A DNA stretch of 64,000 nt from Yuukianura sp. NJ FZ-2021 (Eukaryota), in the NCBI GenBank assembly GCA_046563655.1, contig CM102289.1, positions 6,014,001 to 6,078,000 on the forward strand, given 5' to 3'. Within the stretch, counting starts at the first letter, position 1. Each line of letters starts with the position of its first letter. This document shows positions 2,784 through 42,899 of this stretch, one piece after another. The position numbers were made by a program, and so were the translations under genes. The notes beneath the pieces are model-generated. The model had not been told where the DNA came from, searched no databases, and was given only the letters and a program-made list of their open reading frames with translations.

Positions 2784-5700
2784 TGTCTCCACTTTTTTCT
2801 CACACTTCGAAGCTCACAAACAGTCGAGTCCAATTAACCTGTATTAGGAAACTAATCAACCCTGTCCTTGCGTCACCTTCCACACTTAAACCTAACTTCC
2901 TGTTGGTTTGGACACTGCAATGAGCAGTCATCAGCACAAAGGTCAAAGGTCACACTGTACTACGCAATTAGTACGATTCAGATCAAAGAAAACAAAAGAG
3001 AAAGTGACTTCCTCTTCCTGTACTTTTTTCTTTCACTAAGCATTTGATCAGACGGGCAATGAAAATCGTTCTTTTCCAATTTCGACGGCCTGCGACCGTA
3101 ATTATTTTCCTAGGTATTAATTTTTTTTTATTGTGTTTCATTAGTTCGGACTTGCGTGAAAGAGAGGGTAGGGAAAGGCGTAGAATGATCGCTCTCACGC
3201 GGGTTCTAACTTTCATGATTTTCTTTATTAATAATTTATTTAATACTAGAGTAATACTATTTTTATTATAATAATCCTAATGAAAATATATCTGTGTATA
3301 AACATACTAAAGTAAATTGTACCTATTCAACCTTCCGTGTTATTGTTTTCTAAATTGCTTTCACTGCTCCAGCCTTGATTACTTTCACCCGTGCTTCCCT
3401 TTTCTCCTGGCACAAATCCATGGGCAATGCTAAAGCCAAAGTTTTAGAAGGTGCCCAACAATGATGCTTTTTGGCGGGAAAGGGTATGAGTAGTGGAGAA
3501 AGTTGTGAGCATTTCAGAACGCGTTTACGATGTCATTTTCCAACTTCCATTTCATTTCATAATTAATAAGCAGGAGTGAGAGAGGGAAAATTCAAACTTT
3601 CACACGCTCTGGTTTAAGCTATAGGAAATTAGATCTCCACTTTTTAAAAACTTCCCTCCAAAAAGAATTTACACCAAACGTTAGTGCTTGGAAGTGTGAA
3701 GAATCGTGATTCTTTCTGCAAAAGGAGAAATGGAGCAAACTGCAATTCAAGTTTACACTAACTAGGCATATTACCTTTCTAAGTTAGAACGATGACGATG
3801 TGGAAAGAACTAACCTCTCTATGGATTCTGCTGCTGCTGGCTTGTGGTAAAGATAAAAATTTTGAAGTTTGGCGCTTCTCCTTCTCTCTTCCAATGTAAT
3901 TAAGCATTACTTTTAATAGCCTAATTTCAAATGGGGAGGGAGGGGAGCAAAGAGCGGCGGCGGCGGAAGGAAGTTGTTGGAAAACGGGTTCCCGCTCCCC
4001 CAAATTTTTGCTTCGTTCTGGCTAATGGACCAAATTTTCAGTTTTTGTCAATGGAGAAAGCTTTTGCTTCTTTTGACGGAGAAAGCACATTTTTCGTGAG
4101 TTAGAAAAAAAAGTGAAAGTAAGAAGCAGAAATAAGGCGTTGCTCACATTAATGAAATCTTTCAAGAAGAAAAACTAGAAGGGGAAAAGTAAGACGAGAA
4201 CAGAATAAAAATGATTTATGATTTTTTTTTCTCTGATATTTTTTCCTCTCTCTTCTTTGAGCGTTTCTTTTTTTTTTCAGAAAAGCGTCTGCGTCGTTTT
4301 TTGTTGTTGTGTTTCGAACTACGCGCTGGCTGTTTTTGTCTCAACGTGCCCCGTGCGTTTCGTAACTTCCGTCTGCCTTCATTTGGTTTTCATCTTGAGA
4401 CAACTGGAGAAAGTTCGTTTCGGAGAAAAAGGGAAGTGGACTTCATGAATAAGTAAGTCGAGAAGAAAAAATAAAACAAGAGCTGGGCATCAAAGAAACA
4501 AAGTAGAGCAACGAAAATATAAGCAGAGTTGGGCAACCGAAAGGAGAGAAAATCCGTCTTGACAAATGATTTAATTAGACAATATCATCTTCTCTGAAAG
4601 TAGAATTTTTTCATTTCATGAAGCCCGAGAAAGTGCTTTCCTCACTTTCTTTGAAAGAGAAAGTGCATCTTTTTCTGAAAGATCCGGAAGATTAAGGCGG
4701 GAAAGATCCTCATCTCACACTTTCATTTTTTTTTTTAAAAAAAATCTCCCGCCACGGCTGCTTCGCTCCCCTCCTCCCACTACTGGACTTAATGAAGTGA
4801 AAAAGTCCATTATTCCTAATTTCATTCACTCTCTCCCTCATCCAATTCCTGCAGTAACCTTATTCCTTTGGTTAGGTTAACAGCCTTTTACGGTTAGAGT
4901 CAGTTAACCTACTGCCGTTGAGTTAGGTTAACCTAACCATTAGATGTAGACATAGCCTAACATGTCTCCAACAGAAGTTCTGGAAAACCAATAAGTGAAA
5001 AGAGAAAGTCGAAAGTGGCAGACGTAGGGCTAATAATCTCACCACTTTCTCTTACTTTCTCCTGCATGGAAACCTTAGACGACAATTTAATTCAAATCAG
5101 AACTCAATTTCCACAAGAGTAAGAGCGGGAATGGATTTTCACTATTTTGAAATTGGAACTTCGGCAGAAAAAAATGGCACAAAAGTTTCAATTTTTTGGT
5201 AGCACAAAAGAGCTTTACTTTTTTTTCGAACGTCATTTTAAATTGGTTACTTAAAAATTCGCAAAGAAGAAAAGAATTGGCACATGCCTCCTTGTTCCTA
5301 TACGCATTTTCTTGTCTTTCTTGTGACAAGTGGATGATTTCACAAAGTCCTTTTCCAAGAACAAGACGCAGATAAGCAGGGAATGTGCGCGTAAAATTTT
5401 TTGGGAGACTTTTTGAAAAAGTTATGCGGTTTTCACTTTTTTTATGTGGAATTTCCGTTATTGGTAGCATTTGGTGGTGGTTTAGCCGGAAGACGCTAAC
5501 CAAAAGACCCAAATTGAGCTGTAGTGAGTTTGAACTATCCCGCCAAAAGACATTCCCTTTTGTTTTTGGGTCGTAAATGAGTCCATTTGTATTCCGGGAG
5601 TGTCCATGGAAGTTCTGGAAGGAGGACATGGGAAGGGGTATGATTTGGAATTGGCCATTCATAATAAACGACAGTGGAAGTCCTTCATGTCCTTCCACCA

Positions 5701-34900: not shown

Positions 34901-37576
34901 TTCTCAAACAAACAACATTAAAATACCCCTTTCTCCCCAAAACTTCAAACTTTTCAAATTAATTTTCTTTTCTTTTCATTTTTTTTTTGCAAGAAAAAAA
35001 GTTACGTATTTTCTCGCAGATAAGCCGCGGATTATCTGTGAATTTTCAGAAAATTTGGAATGAGGAGAAATTTTTTCCCCCGAAATTCGTCAAAAACAAT
35101 TGTTAATAATGCATAAAACTATGTTTTGAGGCCCTTTCTAAGACTAAACTAAACATTAATCTATTGCTCGCTCATTAGATTCGTCGAGCAGATCACCCGA
35201 CATAAATAAACCTTAAATGAACGCAGAAGATGAAAGGTTTAAGATGAATTTAACTTTGTTTAAGTCTTTTCAAATTTATTTAATTCATTTAATTGAATTT
35301 AAATTTATTTAAGACTAAATGAAACTTTCCGGCACATAAAGAAGCCGACCTTGACCGATAGCATGAAATAAAATGAAGTAAAATGGACTTTTTCCTATAG
35401 CTTAAACCGGAGTTTTGCCTAAATGAGAACCTTCTCTTCTGTTTTCGGTTTTTTGAAAAATGCCGAGGTTCTTCGGTTTAAACTGTTAAAATTTAAAAAT
35501 TACATTTTAAATTGAAAATTAAAAGTAATTTAAAATTAAAGTTTTAAATTGAAAAACGAGTAGAAATTATGGAACTCCTTGGTTGTATTTTAAAAACAAA
35601 ATTTAAAGCGCTGATGAGCAAAAATCTTTTTGTTTAATACCCCTGTTTTTCCTGCTCTCACATGCATATACGGTTTTGAGACTGCGGCTTATACGCGAGA
35701 GCGGCTTATAGGCGAGAAAATACGGTAGTTTGAACTTTGAGACTTCGAGCGGGGGAACACAAAAGGCAGAAAGCAAACTTTGGGCTAAAACTCTCCAGGG
35801 TCATGCAAACAAGCAGACAACACAGCCAAGACTCTAGGATTAGTTGTAAGCAACGGTCATTCCAGAACAATCTTTATAGGAAAACAACACTAAGATGTCT
35901 AATAGCTGATAAACTTGCGTAGATTCTGGCTCAAAATATACAAAATCTGATTTTTCGTTTAACATTCCCGGGGATTACCTTCCGAGTTGTAGACATGGCT
36001 GCAATTGAAGTGAGAACGACAGCTTGTACTTCAGAGTGAGCTCGCAATAGACGAATGAGTGGCTTTATGACTGCATGCACTTCGGCTTTTGGAGCCAAAT
36101 GATGATACAATTGAACGACGGCCATCACCACCTTCGTAATTCAAAAAAAAAAGTTGTGAAATGTCACCCTAAACTTACTCACTTATGAGAACTACGAAAC
36201 TTCAAACTTACGGAAGCACTTCTACTTTGAAGGAGGGGCCTCGTGTTCTTCAGAAGTAAGCGATGATCCGCATCCATTTCCGGTTTCTTGTCGGCTTGTT
36301 CTTGCTTTTGCTCATCATCTTCGTTCTCTTCTTCGTCGTAAAATGGTTTTTCTTCTCCGTCTATAGATAAATCCTGTAACAAACATAAAAAAAAACTTTT
36401 TAGCGGATCGAAATTTTAAGTACAAAAGCATGTTAATAAATTACCCCAATGTTTGGGTCCACAAATTGAGTCCTAGCATAACGTGTGAGTGTATTGACAA
36501 TGACAACTTGACCCCATTCGTCAACGTCAACCAGCAGAGAGCAAAGTTTCCGATAGTTTTTGTGTATCAAATCAATCCGCTCGGGACATACCTAAAAAAG
36601 TTCAGAAATACTTCCATGTGGGTGGATACTGGAAAAGTTCTTAACGGCCTACCTCTTCAAATGCCATGACTGCAGAACCAACAACTAACGTTGTGCGATC
36701 CGCTAGGAGCTTATCCAGAATTTGGACCAACTCATCTTTTTGTTCTGGATCCAAGCTGAAAATAAAATGAACAACGATAAAGAATGCACTTGCCTTTTGG
36801 CAAATATTTTTAGACAGAGAATTTTGTAACAAACCTAAAAAGTTTTGGAATGGCATGTGCCGCAGTTTTTCGTACATAAGGGCTCATATCAGCCACGGAA
36901 TCACGAATGGCGAGCATTACAATTGGAACTATCATTGGCACCCGAATGCTGGAAAGGACACGCAGGGCGCTAGCTCGGATTAGTTGGTTTGGGTCCTATA
37001 AAAAAGTTGACGCTGATTATTATTTTAAGTTCGCGAGTTATTATGAACTAGTACCTTCAGAGCTCTTTGAAACGTTGAGATGGATAACAGAGCGAGATCC
37101 TGCTGTTCTTCGGCATATCGGACAAGGTACACGTAAACTAATTTCTTAACTTCGGCGTTCTTGGAGACAACATTTTTCACCACTGCTGCAAACAAGTCCG
37201 ATGCATCCCGTCCTTTCGCTACCATCTAAGAACCAAAACCAAGGCATGAATTAGAAGATACTCTAAAATTTAACATATTATACTCATTCCTCCAGTATGA
37301 TAGGCACACCCCAATAATCCGCTTCATTGCCTCCAGTTTGAGATTGTCTCTGTTGCTGTCCAGCATTTGCTTCAAGTCATCGTGCCTACAAAAATCGTTC
37401 AGTTCAAATTGGACCTTGACTTACGACATTTTAGATCCCTGCCCAGGGTCATCTCATGTGCTGCTGTTTTTTTAAAAAAGTCACCTCTTGAAATCCGAAC
37501 TGAAGAAAGATCCAACACCGGTATCACGATCTCCAGAACCGGAAGAACCCATCCAATCAGTCAAGCTGGGGTCCAT
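31964..37576 (-). CDS. AP3B: AP-3 complex subunit beta, 843 aa, 13 exons (trunk plus acidic hinge, no appendage seen)
   Basis: Exons 37576-37485, 37385-37310, 37225-37055, 36995-36835, 36755-36653, 36591-36445, 36373-36212, 36131-35979, 34703-34436, 33929-33709, 33085-32833, 32759-32122, 32050-31964. Motifs [81 protein letters not shown]. Confidence 0.95.
35005..35725. mobile_element. Non-autonomous Tc2/pogo-type MITE (AP3B intron 8)
   Basis: Left end TA|CGTATTTTCTCGCAGATAAGCCGC, right end GCGGCTTATAGGCGAGAAAATACGG|TA. It has the same doubled GCGGCTTAT subterminal motif as the element at 24989-25858 and an AT-rich non-coding interior. Confidence 0.8.
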
Positions 37577-38090
37577 GACCTTTGCAACTGCAATCCTACC
37601 GGTCAGCGTACCTCAATAAATCTCCAATTAAAAATTATTAAAAATCAAGTAGAAAAACTCACCAAATACCAAAATCAAAATGACAAGCTTTGAGAAGTGA
37701 GATTACAGTAGCGAATGACAGCATACGATTCAAGTTAAATTGTATTTTTACTCTGCCTGATTCATTTCATGTTTACGCTCAAAATATCGCGTTTTAATAG
37801 TCTGAAAATTCTACTAGTCATTATTATATGATTATTAATTAATTAATAATAATTTCTTTGCAAACACATTATCATATTAATTAATTATTCACTGATTTGG
37901 TATTTCTCTTTGATGCCCAAGTCGGACAGCGAGGTGTGGAGGGTATGTGGCGGGAATTGAAAACTTTAAATTTTGAATTTTGATTGTTTTTGAATTTACC
38001 GCTTGCAATGTCAAATGGTATCATTGCGCACAGCATAGCATGATGTTCCATGCGGCATGTCTGTTTGCTGTAGCATTAGACCTTACCTGA

Positions 38091-38101
38091 CTACTCCTTT
38101 C
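38091..38101 (+). promoter_or_regulatory. Candidate TCT/5'TOP polypyrimidine initiator of RpS6
   Basis: CTACTCCTTTC about 100 nt upstream of the RpS6 ATG, as is typical of ribosomal-protein gene starts. The transcription start itself cannot be observed here. Confidence 0.5.
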
Positions 38102-38195
38102 ACGGCAACAGAAAGTGAACGATGTTTTGGTAATCGTTAATTCCTTTGGTCATCCATCAATTAGTGAATCAATTACTTAGAAAACAACTGTAAAC

Positions 38196-39747
38196 ATGAA
38201 GGTAAGTAACGGTTGCATAAAGATTTGGAGTTGCATGGAGAATTACTAATTCTTTTCTTGTGTATTTAACAGTTGAACGTAGCTATCCCTTCTACGGGAG
38301 CTCAGAAGGTTTTTGAAGAACATGATGAGCATAAGCTTCGTATCTTCTACGAGAAACGTATGGGAGCCGAAGTGGAGGCTGATACTTTGGGAGATGACTG
38401 GAAAGGATATGTCCTCCGTATCACCGGTGGAAATGACAAGCAAGGATTCCCAATGAAACAAGGAGTCCTCACAAACGGTATGTTTTGTGCATGAACATAC
38501 TATTAGAATAAGTCACAGTCCAAGCTCCAGATTAAGAGTATCCTATACCTAGTTTGGTGACGATGACTGTAAAATCAATATGGTATTCATGCTATACCTG
38601 TTCTCTAATTTTCGAGTTCCGGCACGTTGAAGTACCGACAACGATACGACTTGCATTAAAGTGTTAATCAGATTGGATTCCGACGAGGATTTTGATTCCA
38701 TATGATATGTTGTTGTACAGGTCGAGTCCGCCTGCTGTTATCGAAAGGCCAATCTTGCTATCGTCCTCGTCGTACTGGGGAGAGGAAACGTAAATCTGTT
38801 CGTGGATGTATCGTTGATGGAGCGCTTAGCGCCCTTTCTCTTGTTGTAGTTAAGAAGGGAGAAAAGGTGAGTTATTTTATTAAGCGAAATTCATTTGAAG
38901 TTCTAGTTGACTCGTGATACTATACAGTTCCAGCTCCATGTACGATTATACCACATGCGTAACATGGCGTTTATAACTGTAAAATTAAAAAATATTAACC
39001 CTAAAACACCATCGAATTTCTTGTAAATTGTTGGCACCTGGAGTTACTTACACCTAAACAAAGAACAACTTACATTATATGATTGATGAATGATGGACCA
39101 TCTTAACGAAATGCAATTTTTGTTTAGGAAATCGCTGGATTAACCGATGTCACCGTTCCACGACGACTTGGACCTAAGCGAGCATCTAAGATCCGTAAAC
39201 TCTTTAGTTTGTCAAAGGAAGATGATGTTCGACAGTACGTTATCAAACGACCACTTCCACAGAAGGAAGGCAAGAAACAGCGGTTCAAGGCCCCCAAGAT
39301 TCAACGTCTCATTACCCCCGTCATGCTTCAGGTATTTATCAGTGACAAATTGAACTTAATTTTTCTTTAGTCCCACACCACAGGCAACTCCAGTCACAGA
39401 TCAAGTTGACTTCTAGTGTTCAGTAGTGTGGGAAAATAAATCACCGAAAGATTTAAAACTTTCCTGTCCTTTGGATGGATTGTTTTAGTGTACCGGTGAA
39501 ACATTAACATGACACTTGGAACACACATTTGATACTTATAAAGCCGAATGTTTGTTGTTTATAGCGCAAGAGACATCGCGTTGCCCTCAAGCGCCGTCGT
39601 GCCGAGAAGAGGAAGCACGAAGCAGCCGATTACGCCAAACTCCTCGCCCAGCGACAGAAGGAAGCCAAGGAAAGGAAACAACTGGAAGCTAAGCGAAGAC
39701 GTTCAGCGTCCATGCGGGAATCAAAAACATCCGTTTCCAGTAAATAG
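38196..39747 (+). CDS. RPS6: 40S ribosomal protein S6, 247 aa
   Basis: Exons 38196-38201, 38273-38477, 38721-38866, 39128-39331, 39565-39747. Motifs [40 protein letters not shown] and the C-terminal [10 protein letters not shown] phospho-motif. Confidence 0.98.
38513..38643 (+). ncRNA. Box H/ACA snoRNA in RpS6 intron 2
   Basis: Hairpin (ACAGTC/GACTGT), H box AAATCA at 38572-38577, second hairpin (GGTATTCA/TGAAGTACC), ACA at 38638-38640 plus 3 nt; ~130 nt long. Confidence 0.75.
38921..39055 (+). ncRNA. Box H/ACA snoRNA in RpS6 intron 3 (predicted double 28S guide)
   Basis: Hairpin (TACAGTT/AACTGTA, CCATGT/ACATGG), H box AAATTA at 38982-38987, second hairpin, ACA at 39050-39052. Both pockets are complementary to conserved 28S motifs with 14-nt spacing. 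Confidence 0.85.
39369..39506 (+). ncRNA. Box H/ACA snoRNA in RpS6 intron 4
   Basis: Hairpin (TCCCACAC/GTGTGGGA), H box AAATAA at 39434-39439, second hairpin (TCACCG/CGGTGA, TAAAAC/GTTTTA), ACA at 39501-39503 plus 3 nt. Confidence 0.8.
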
Positions 39748-39945
39748 ACACCCCATTTGTCTTGTTCTTTTTACATCCAGAAAATAAATGGTAATCGTTT
39801 TTGGCTCTTAATTCTTCGTAAACGAAACAAAAACGATGCAGTATCTTTTATTTTCCTTTATTACAGTACTTGAATTTAATTTCTTTTGAATCTTAACTTT
39901 ATCCAGAATCCACCTCCAGCATTTTCTGAATGTGCTGTTGCACAA

Positions 39946-42899
39946 TTACCAGTTTGGAGGATACGGCGGAGGTTGCATATAATTCTGTTGTTGTTGTTGC
40001 TGCTGTTGTGAATAATTTTCGTTCATTTGCTGTTGGTAGTACGACGGATACTCTTGCGTTTCATAATAATAGTTTGGATTCCTGAACTGTTGTTGCAGGG
40101 CAGCAAAATGGTCGGAAAGTTGTGCTTGGCTGAACTGAGCCATTGGATGATGCACTTCCTGTTGGAATCCAGCCATACTTGGCATCTGTCCTCCCATCAT
40201 TCCCAAATTGGCGCCATGTACTTGTGGATTCCCTTGATTTTGCGACGACATGAAATTGGCAATCATCTCTGGCGGAATTCTGCTCATGTCAAATCCTGGT
40301 CCACCTCCAGTTCCCGTCGCTCCAAAAACGGATTGGATTTTGGTCAGAACTTCTGGACTAAGCGATTCCTTCAATTGTCTCAAAGCATTTTGGTCAGTAG
40401 ATTCCAGTATGTTTTTAAACTGTGTCATGTTGGGGCTACCATCTCCACTGGACATTGTCATCTGCGTGTCCATTGGCATTGGTGGAGAGCCTCCTGGCAT
40501 TTGCGACTGCGCAAATTGTGGATTCTGTTGAAAGAAGGATCGAGCATAAGCCAGTTCATTTTCAATTGGAAACTGCGTAAAAGGATTGTTGACAAGAGCG
40601 GGAATTTTGCGATTGACAAATTGCATAAAGAAATCCTTGGCTTGTGGAGGAGCTTGTTGCTGCATTGGCATTTGTGGTACTGCAAACTGCGTCTGCTGTG
40701 TATTGTAGCCTTGCATTCCTTGGGCAGCATATTGGGCCTGGAATTGCAGCGTTTGTTGTTGCCTTTGCTGCTCCTGAGCAAGCGCTTGTCCAACAATTTG
40801 GTCTTCAACGAGAACCCACTGAGGGTAGGGATTCAAGTTGAGATTTCCAAGTTGTTCTTGAATTTTTTCAACCTCCGTTTTGGTCATGCGCAAATTGTAT
40901 TCCGTGTGAGAGTCATTCAGTTGCCTCAGATCTGTCAATTTGGTCAGGAGCTGAAAAATTCAAAATGAAAAGACATTTCGAAATTTTGACATTTCAAGAA
41001 TATTTTACCTTTGGGAAAGTTTTTGCTCCTTTTGGACCGTAGCGCCATTCGACATACTTCTTGAGTAAGAGCAGATACTTGTCTTGGACTTGACTGATGT
41101 ACTGCTGATTTTCCAGTGTACCGCGTTCCGGATAGAAGAGAACGACCAGCAGCAGAATCATCACGGTAGCTTCATCTGCACCCAATTCCTGCATTCCGTT
41201 TATAAACTGCATGTGCATGTCATAGAGATCTTTGGAAACTAGTTTTTCCATGTCTTCAACCTAAAAAAAAGTCAGAAATATGTTTGTTTTTGTGTTTTTA
41301 GAATTTTTGTGATGTTAAACATGTCTTTTTTTTTGGAACTCACGCGAAGTTGTGGACAATCTTTGAGGAAAGTCAGTTTCTCAGTGGCTGGCCATCGATT
41401 GTTTTTCATATCAAATGAAAGTGCTCCACGCAACAAGCACATTTCAAGGACGCTGGCCCTGAGCAGTGTACTTTGATCTGGAATGGACAGATGAGTAAAT
41501 TCGGGCAAAAGTTTTGTAAAGTAAGCAAAACGACGCAGAATCGTTGTGAACATTTGAATAATCTCGATTGTGTTGCGACTTCCTTGGCAGTGCGACACTC
41601 GAAACGGAATTTCACGATACGAATGCTGATACTTGTTGACAATACACTCAATTTCGTCTTTTTCTTCAACTGTCATGTAGTTTAGCATTTCATTAACGTC
41701 TGGTTCGTATTCCTTCTCTGCAGCAACTTCCGGTTTCTTTTCTTTCCTAAATTCAAAAATTCTTTAAGGTTTTGATGAAGTTTTAAAGTGGAAATTTTTA
41801 AACTCATAGAACTTACTTTTGAAGTTTAAGTTGATTTCGTTCCTCCTCGCCCATGACCCATTTCGTTTCCATTCCGATTGACAAGCATTTTTGAAATCGA
41901 CAGAACTGACATCCTTTTCGTGACGCTTTGTCCACGGGACAGTGACGATCGTAAGCACAACGGAAAGCTGCATGTGAATCATTGTGAACTGCTCGGCGGA
42001 AGAAAGCTTTACAACTGTCGCAGGACAGTCCACCAAAGTGGAAACTTTTTGCAATGTCACCGCAAACGCCGCAAATCTAAAATTAATGCAAACTTTTCTC
42101 AGTTTCAGCCAATCGTTTTAAAAAAAAATTCAATTTTTTTTTGTTTTTTGATACCTTCTTTCTCTGATTCGTCGTTTTCTCTATCTCTTCCGTTCCGGTT
42201 GAAGAAAGTTTGTTGCTTTGCTCTGGCTGATGTTGTTCTTGTTCCTCTTGATTATCTGTATCTTCCTTCGCTTCTGCAAGTAAAAAGAAGTTTCTAGTCA
42301 ATATTAAAATACAAAATTTTTTTTTTTTTGGAAAAAATATTCCCTTAGGTCACAAATTAAAACCAATTTTTCTCACATGAAAAAAAAATCTTACTTTTTG
42401 TGAACATTATTTTCAAAAAATTCCAAAACAAACAGCCTTTACATAAATCCCGTTCCTCGTTACGAAAGAGAGTGAAAGCTAAAGTGGAGTGGCAGAGTGG
42501 CAAACGACAAACGCTGTAAAAAGCTTCTGGAGAAAGCAGTAAAAGTGAAAATGTGGAGCAACAAGTGATTGATTCCTTGCTGTTGCCAAGCAATGTGAAA
42601 CCAAAAAAATAGCACTGAAATAACATTTCCAGGGAAAAACTTAACGAGGCGAAGTGGAAACTAAGCAACGGAGAGAAAAGTGTGATTCTTTCTCCATCTC
42701 TTCCAAAAATTGATCAAAATCTAAACAGCGTAAGTGCATTACAGCTAAAAACAATTCAGCTTTAGTTTAGCGTGTCAAAAAAAAATCGCTTACCTTGTTC
42801 GGTTCTGTTGTTAGAACTGACTTTGTTTAGTACTTCTCCGTTGACTTTTGGATTCGAAGTGCTGCTGACCCCAGAAGATGATGAATCTGCTTCAAACAT
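39946..42899 (-). CDS. NR1-group nuclear receptor (HR97/HR96-like), 714 aa, with long Q-rich C-terminal extension
   Basis: Exons 42899-42794, 42273-42155, 42076-41817, 41746-41344, 41260-41009, 40950-39946. DBD ICGVCGDIAKSFHFGGLSCDSCKAFFRR...CQFCRFQKCLSIGM; LBD FTKLLPEFTHLSIPDQSTLLR..VLEMCLLR. Subfamily assigned from recollection of the CDSCKA P-box in HR97. Confidence 0.9.

Follow-up and report, generated by a model that had tools for sequence, protein, structure and literature searches.

A candidate ceN36-1-type box H/ACA snoRNA in intron 3 of an RpS6 gene

The stretch of DNA analysed here, 64 kb in length and referred to below as the window, carries an RpS6 gene on the + strand, and the exon/intron map of this gene surrounds a candidate box H/ACA snoRNA (Table 1). 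RpS6 exon 2 matched the Pfam family Ribosomal_S6e with 89.1 bits, and also matched the eS6 chains of solved ribosomes. The best PDB entries scored 106.8 bits against RpS6 exon sequence, and 92.9 bits were obtained with entry 9bh5, which we take to be the C. elegans ribosome. A gene neighbouring RpS6 encodes a nuclear-receptor ligand-binding domain (Pfam), which marks the host as an animal; the Atlas clusters nearest to the exon specifying this domain are described as 'commonest Nematoda' (score 0.96), which serves as a lead only, a nematode host being tentative. Directly 3′ of RpS6, on the opposite strand, lies an open frame of 337 amino acids rich in Q, P and M (39946-40959, -), for which no usable Atlas match was found. 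A match resembling snoZ159/U59 inside this frame (39996-40096, +; 20.1 bits, E 3.6) is probably due to chance.

Table 1. Features of the RpS6 gene and of the snoRNA candidate in the window
Feature	Position	Strand	Details
RpS6 exon 1	38196-38201	+	ATGAAG
RpS6 intron 1	38202-38272	+	
RpS6 exon 2	38273-38477	+	
RpS6 intron 2	38478-38720	+	
Diverged snoRNA paralog, RpS6 intron 2	38513..38643	+	R1 110.9 bits; 7-copy alignment
RpS6 exon 3	38721-38866	+	
RpS6 intron 3, snoRNA host	38867-39127	+	GT..AG, 261 nt
Box H/ACA snoRNA candidate, RpS6 intron 3	38921..39055	+	135 nt; RF01627, R1, helices in seven copies
5′ hairpin	38924..38981	+	lower stem, pocket 1, upper stem
5′ hairpin lower stem	38924-38929 (ACAGTT)	+	ACAGTT / AACTGT
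Pocket-1 5′ arm	38930-38935	+	CCAGCT
5′ hairpin upper stem		+	CCATGT / ACATGG
Pocket-1 3′ arm	38968-38971	+	CGTT
H box	38982-38987	+	AAATTA (ANANNA)
3′ hairpin	38996..39049	+	lower stem TAAC(C)/(G)aGTTA, pocket 2, upper stem
Pocket-2 5′ arm	39002-39007	+	TAAAAC
3′ hairpin upper stem		+	CCA.../...TGG, closed by A-C apposition
Pocket-2 3′ arm	39036-39040	+	ACCTG
ACA box	39050-39052	+	3 nt from proposed 3′ end; 75 nt before 3′ splice site
RpS6 exon 4	39128-39331	+	
RpS6 intron 4	39332-39564	+	
Second, unrelated H/ACA-like RNA, RpS6 intron 4	39372-39506	+	counterpart at L003 3187-3321 (-)
RpS6 exon 5	from 39565 to stop near 39750	+	

A run search matched two metatranscriptome runs, X1 (share 0.20) and X2 (share 0.05). 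The contigs from both runs lie on exons only and are uninformative either way for a snoRNA in intron 3. Those from X1 are 100% identical to the exons and are spliced from 38476/7 to 38720/1 and from 39329 to 39563, corresponding to introns 2 and 4. At intron 3, record 1 of X1 stops at 38867 with an 8-nt overhang, AAATCGCT, which is the start of exon 4. The spliced contigs confirm that the RpS6 host gene is expressed and that the flanking exon borders are correct, and the contig joints together with the 8-nt overhang place the snoRNA candidate inside RpS6 intron 3. The sequence-only reading of this locus had named the same intron as host, and the exon map, the splice joints and the overhang all agree with it.

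To describe the candidate we took the H/ACA layout to be a hairpin, a hinge with an H box (ANANNA), a second hairpin and an ACA 3 nt from the 3′ end, and a guide pocket to be a bipartite pairing around an unpaired U-N, located about 14-16 nt before the H or ACA box. The candidate has an H box and an ACA, both hairpins fold, and the 3′ end so defined is the one proposed. The first base of the pocket-1 3′ arm lies 14 nt ahead of the H box and the first base of the pocket-2 3′ arm 14 nt ahead of the ACA, and the two pockets form 12 and 11 pairs respectively with unique sites in large subunit (LSU) rRNA. Both the hairpin-H-hairpin-ACA order with its two pockets and the 14-nt spacing, as originally proposed, are therefore borne out by the sequence and its coordinates. 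In the 64-kb window there is one match to CCAGCT..CGTT..ANANNA, where shuffles lead one to expect 0.08, and one to TAAAAC..ACCTG..ACA, where they give 0.15; these two box-anchored patterns adjoin each other on the same strand. Thermodynamic folding alone was unremarkable, with a minimum free energy of -23.6 kcal/mol (z -1.53) that was equalled by 13 of 200 shuffled sequences.

Target sites were sought in a complete eukaryotic rDNA unit (L045, in which SSU, 5.8S and LSU all score far above gathering) by testing bipartite pairing at every U, 1824 positions in total. Exactly one site was found for each pocket. Pocket 1 pairs with the LSU sequence ..gggaacg-UG-agctggg.. through 5+7 pairs, including two G-U pairs, and pocket 2 with ..acaggu-UA-guuuua.. 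through 5+6 pairs, all of them Watson-Crick. When the pocket arms were shuffled, the observed score in L045 was equalled in 8 of 1000 trials for pocket 1 and in 2 of 1000 trials for pocket 2. The unique sites and the low shuffle rates uphold the fit that had been claimed between each pocket and its LSU motif.

Both sites also fit in 7/7 long LSU fragments, which come from other eukaryotes and were retrieved by the two target motifs themselves. The motif search yielded one contig from a viral collection (L005) and at least 37 contaminating contigs of prokaryote assemblies. In all 38 fragments among the matches listed the motif match spans 43 nt, with the motifs 18 nt apart, and the target uridines are 31 nt apart in all seven long fragments measured. 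Since these fragments were fetched with the motifs, the motifs had to be present in them, but nothing in the retrieval imposed the constant spacing or the flanks.

The origin of the retrieved fragments is a separate observation. Eukaryotic LSU rDNA contigs occur in at least 37 assemblies of prokaryote genomes or MAGs (L006-L042, L045), among them contig G001:C34 with a full 18S-5.8S-28S unit; presumably these represent contamination or mis-binning. In the viral-collection contig roughly the first 125 nt (positions 1-125, LSU_rRNA_eukarya 126.8 bits) are eukaryotic LSU rRNA and are followed by unrelated AT-rich coding sequence; this contig is probably a chimeric assembly.

The first LSU motif, AACG-U-GAGCUGG, contains what we take to be yeast U2944, and the 31-nt distance to the second target uridine equals 2975 minus 2944 in yeast 25S numbering. 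Human SNORA27 is assigned to the site equivalent to U2975. No Rfam match to the snR37, snR42, SNORA10 or SNORA27 models was obtained at E<=10 in positions 37000-41500. The candidate has its pocket-1 target uridine in common with yeast snR37 and human SNORA10 (25S U2944 / 28S U4521), and its pocket-2 target uridine in common with yeast snR42 and human SNORA27 (25S U2975), in each case by complementarity; only the target sites are shared, without detectable homology of sequence or structure. According to a preprint (bioRxiv 10.64898/2026.03.20.713187), snR37 guides yeast U2944, as shown by CMC primer extension, and also acts as a scaffold with Upa1/Upa2, snR42 guides U2975, and human U4521 is the equivalent of U2944, with SNORA10 as its predicted guide. 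The assignment of the two yeast sites to separate guides by the sequence-only reading holds, and the 31-nt spacing agrees with it. The guides for U2944 and U2975 are two RNAs in yeast, whereas the candidate would combine them in one. Yeast snR34, a single H/ACA RNA described as the guide for two peptidyl-transferase-region pseudouridines, provides a precedent for a double guide of this kind; its target residues differ, and it has no sequence relation to the candidate.

A scan of the whole 64-kb window with Rfam at gathering thresholds gave nothing. At E<=1 there was a single match in the window, to RF01627, the nematode H/ACA snoRNA ceN36-1. This match covers model positions 1-130 and exactly the candidate interval, with both pockets aligned, and is significant (E 1.6e-5 for 4.5 kb, 2.3e-4 for 64 kb); at 43.3 bits, however, it does not reach the gathering score, which is 48. 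The RF01627 consensus reads UCCagCUCC...GGCGuuu at pocket 1 and AAAAAC-A...C-ACCUg at pocket 2. Candidate and family resemble each other in the order of elements, in pocket 1 (CCAGCU / CGUU), in the pocket-2 arms AAAAC / CACCUG, in the single A and C that flank the upper stem of hairpin 2 and in the 9 nt between CACCUG and ACA. They differ throughout in the sequences of the stems, and the consensus has AAAAAC where the candidate has UAAAAC.

As the RF01627 consensus holds both pockets, the two-guide design belongs to a family already described. The pairing of guides had originally been regarded as unrecognised, with comparison against Rfam proposed as the check; that comparison refutes the novelty of the pairing, with 43.3 bits where gathering asks for 48 and an E value of 2.3e-4 for the 64 kb. 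The candidate is most suitably classed as a new member of the known ceN36-1-type family that scores under the threshold. CeN36 and the targets of nematode snoRNAs were reportedly treated by Deng et al. 2006 and Zemann et al. 2006. In a paper on ceN36, the probe 'CeN36-1' stands for more than one family member. Literature on a double guide for this pair of sites was not found in the accessible portions of the sources searched, including PMC12723226, PMC3412847 and PMC3342880, and a full-text search for the Drosophila site names Psi28S-3405/3436 gave no match.

A metagenome pattern scan returned four loci, L001-L004. Two of these, L001 and L003 (the latter from contig Ga0194135_10000519), come from related organisms and contain RpS6, the amino-acid identity of the single exons being 81-97%. 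The other two, L002 and L004, were rejected as relatives and regarded as chance matches; they are GC-rich and contain neither RpS6 nor a hit to the covariance model described below. Seven copies of the snoRNA were obtained in this way, two in the window, three in L003 and two in L001. The L003 copy at 3722-3856 (-) occupies the intron orthologous to intron 3 of the window, and the other two L003 copies lie in consecutive introns of a short-ORF gene just 3′ of RpS6. This gene (L003 1998-2930, -) is spliced, follows the RpS6 stop and has an ORF of about 30 codons besides its two snoRNA-bearing introns, and it looks like a non-coding snoRNA host gene. At L001 (locus 1241-2540, +) it is introns 1 and 2 of RpS6 that hold the copies, and the 77 nt of intron 3 contain no snoRNA. 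With introns 1 and 2 occupied and intron 3 empty in L001, the intron that hosts the snoRNA varies between related organisms.

A covariance model, R1, was built from the seven copies themselves, and its matches in the window and L001-L004 are those seven copies only, the candidate scoring 124.2 bits and the copy in window intron 2 110.9 bits. In the seven-copy alignment 91.5% of the cells of the four helices are paired, against 22-46% in slid controls, the helices having been drawn from the same seven sequences, which favours that structure. Both bases are changed in 7 of the 22 helix pairs, and none of 500 shuffles reached the covariation score. Compensatory stem changes, which the sequence-only reading had suggested looking for in the RpS6 introns of relatives, were thus seen across the seven copies. 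In a joint Rfam scan of L001-L004, RF01627 was found at E<=1 in none of the four loci. A narrower scan of L003 gave weak RF01627 matches of 24.7, 20.4 and 17.3 bits; the highest is to the copy at 3722-3856, which has CGCTAT at the 5′ arm of hairpin 2.

A second, unrelated H/ACA-like RNA is present in RpS6 intron 4. It consists of CCCACAC...GTGTGGG, an H box, CACCG...CGGTG and then ACA, and it is kept in L003 with the compensatory pair CGTCG/CGACG. Its only Rfam match is a weak one to SNORA41 (17.8 bits, E 8.8). In the window and in L003 its hairpin-1 pocket forms 5+6 pairs with ..ggugaac-UA-ugccug.. of the L045 LSU, the single site common to both in a generic pocket scan that is noisy.

The two pockets of the seven copies differ in how far they are conserved. 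Pocket 1 is identical in six copies, the exception being the copy in window intron 2. At the 5′ arm of hairpin 2, TAAAAC occurs in the candidate alone and GCTAT in the other six. A third LSU site, ..ccaagcgu-UC-auagcg.., is matched through 5+6 pairs by pocket 2 of the intron-2 paralog (GCTAT / ACGTT); this site is located 100-101 nt upstream from that of pocket 1 and was found in four of the seven long LSU fragments and once in L045. We take this site to be a known human 28S pseudouridine (4390 in the old numbering). For pocket 1 of the same paralog (CAAGCT / TGACGAT) no target was found in the full rDNA unit L045. In the five copies of L001 and L003 the hairpin-2 5′ arm fits the third site (5-7 pairs) and the 3′ arm, ACCTG or ACCTT, the downstream site (4-6 pairs); pocket 2 of these copies had no site with at least 10 contiguous pairs in L045. 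Since TAAAAC is present in one copy of seven, and the nearest relative has CGCTAT in its orthologous intron, conservation of the second guide does not extend across the clade. Comparison of the copies suggests that the second guide is labile in this clade and the first fixed.

The interval 38921-39055 probably encodes an intron-derived box H/ACA snoRNA that is a member of the ceN36-1 family or at least a close functional counterpart of it. Such an RNA would be freed from intron 3 of RpS6 after splicing, with dyskerin/Cbf5-Nop10-Nhp2-Gar1 binding to each of its hairpins. Guided by the 5′ pocket, the LSU uridine in AACG-U-GAGCUGG, the equivalent of yeast U2944, would be isomerised, and guided by the 3′ pocket, so would the uridine 31 nt downstream in CAGGU-U-AGUUUUA, the equivalent of yeast U2975. 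The two sites are in the peptidyl-transferase region of domain V. Accumulation of the RNA, binding of the H/ACA proteins and modification of either site are predicted here from the sequence. Alternatively, the AT-rich intron might hold just a decayed pseudogene or a sequence that resembles a snoRNA by chance, giving no stable RNA, which would be compatible with a folding z of only -1.53. This is nevertheless extremely unlikely, given that the two box-anchored pocket patterns occur jointly, that both pockets have unique rRNA sites in L045, that the helices covary among seven copies, that the element is conserved at the RpS6 loci of two other organisms, and that the Rfam E value is 2.3e-4.

The variation of the 3′ pocket raises the alternative of a real H/ACA snoRNA in which the 5′ pocket, directed at the U2944 equivalent, is the only one working, the 3′ pocket being an orphan, without function or recently altered, and its fit to the U2975-equivalent site going unused. 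Six of the seven copies have the same pocket 1 while the TAAAAC arm is confined to one, with GCTAT in the rest, and non-matching 3′ pockets appear to persist, as pocket 2 of the L001 and L003 copies lacks a site of at least 10 pairs. Against this, pocket 2 of the candidate forms 11 uninterrupted Watson-Crick pairs with a unique site, a score equalled in only 2 of 1000 shuffles, its geometry is correct at 14 nt from the ACA, and the ceN36-1 consensus has the pocket-2 arms too; its site is moreover a known yeast pseudouridine, according to the preprint (bioRxiv 10.64898/2026.03.20.713187). We consider a single working pocket unlikely. A lineage-specific fusion of two guides that are separate elsewhere, arisen independently of ceN36-1, is very unlikely. 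The minority state of TAAAAC in the sampled clade (one of seven copies), the RF01627 score under gathering and the lack of snR37, snR42, SNORA10 or SNORA27 matches in Rfam at E<=10 in the 4.5-kb scan would all suit such an origin. The RF01627 alignment, however, shares features outside the guides (lengths, stems, the A/C flank and the 9-nt spacer). ACCTG is also found in two copies from relatives (L003_C and L001_1), with the one-step variant ACCTT in three others, a distribution more readily understood if the ancestor already had a pocket for the downstream site. A convergent origin would not alter the fact that this guide pair is already catalogued.

Membership in the ceN36-1 family, or close functional equivalence to it, leaves two ways of accounting for the likeness of pocket 2 to the family. 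The likeness could reflect convergence driven by the shared target; the persistence of ACCTG in relatives favours retained ancestry as the source of the pocket-2 identity with ceN36-1. It is conceivable, though doubtful, that the copies record a guide switch, in which the 5′ hairpin stays fixed and the 3′ pocket shifts arm by arm between two sites of domain V. The intron-3 copy carries both arms for the downstream site, UAAAAC / ACCUG, and the intron-2 paralog both arms for the site 100-101 nt upstream, GCUAU / ACGUU. The five copies of relatives are chimeric, with GCUAU as 5′ arm, and the 3′ arms of these five and of the intron-2 paralog form the series ACCUG, ACCUU, ACGUU.

These results alter nothing fundamental in H/ACA biology; their only mildly novel aspect is that the RpS6-linked copies vary arm by arm in the 3′ pocket. 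They allow a previously unannotated RpS6 intron to be labelled as a snoRNA gene, and they point to a ceN36-type double guide for two uridines of the peptidyl-transferase region where the default Rfam threshold misses it. A labile second pocket beside a fixed first one would be relevant to the turnover of snoRNA targets. If the guide switch were true, the copies would show how an H/ACA pocket can in nature acquire a new target step by step, by way of forms that match only in part.
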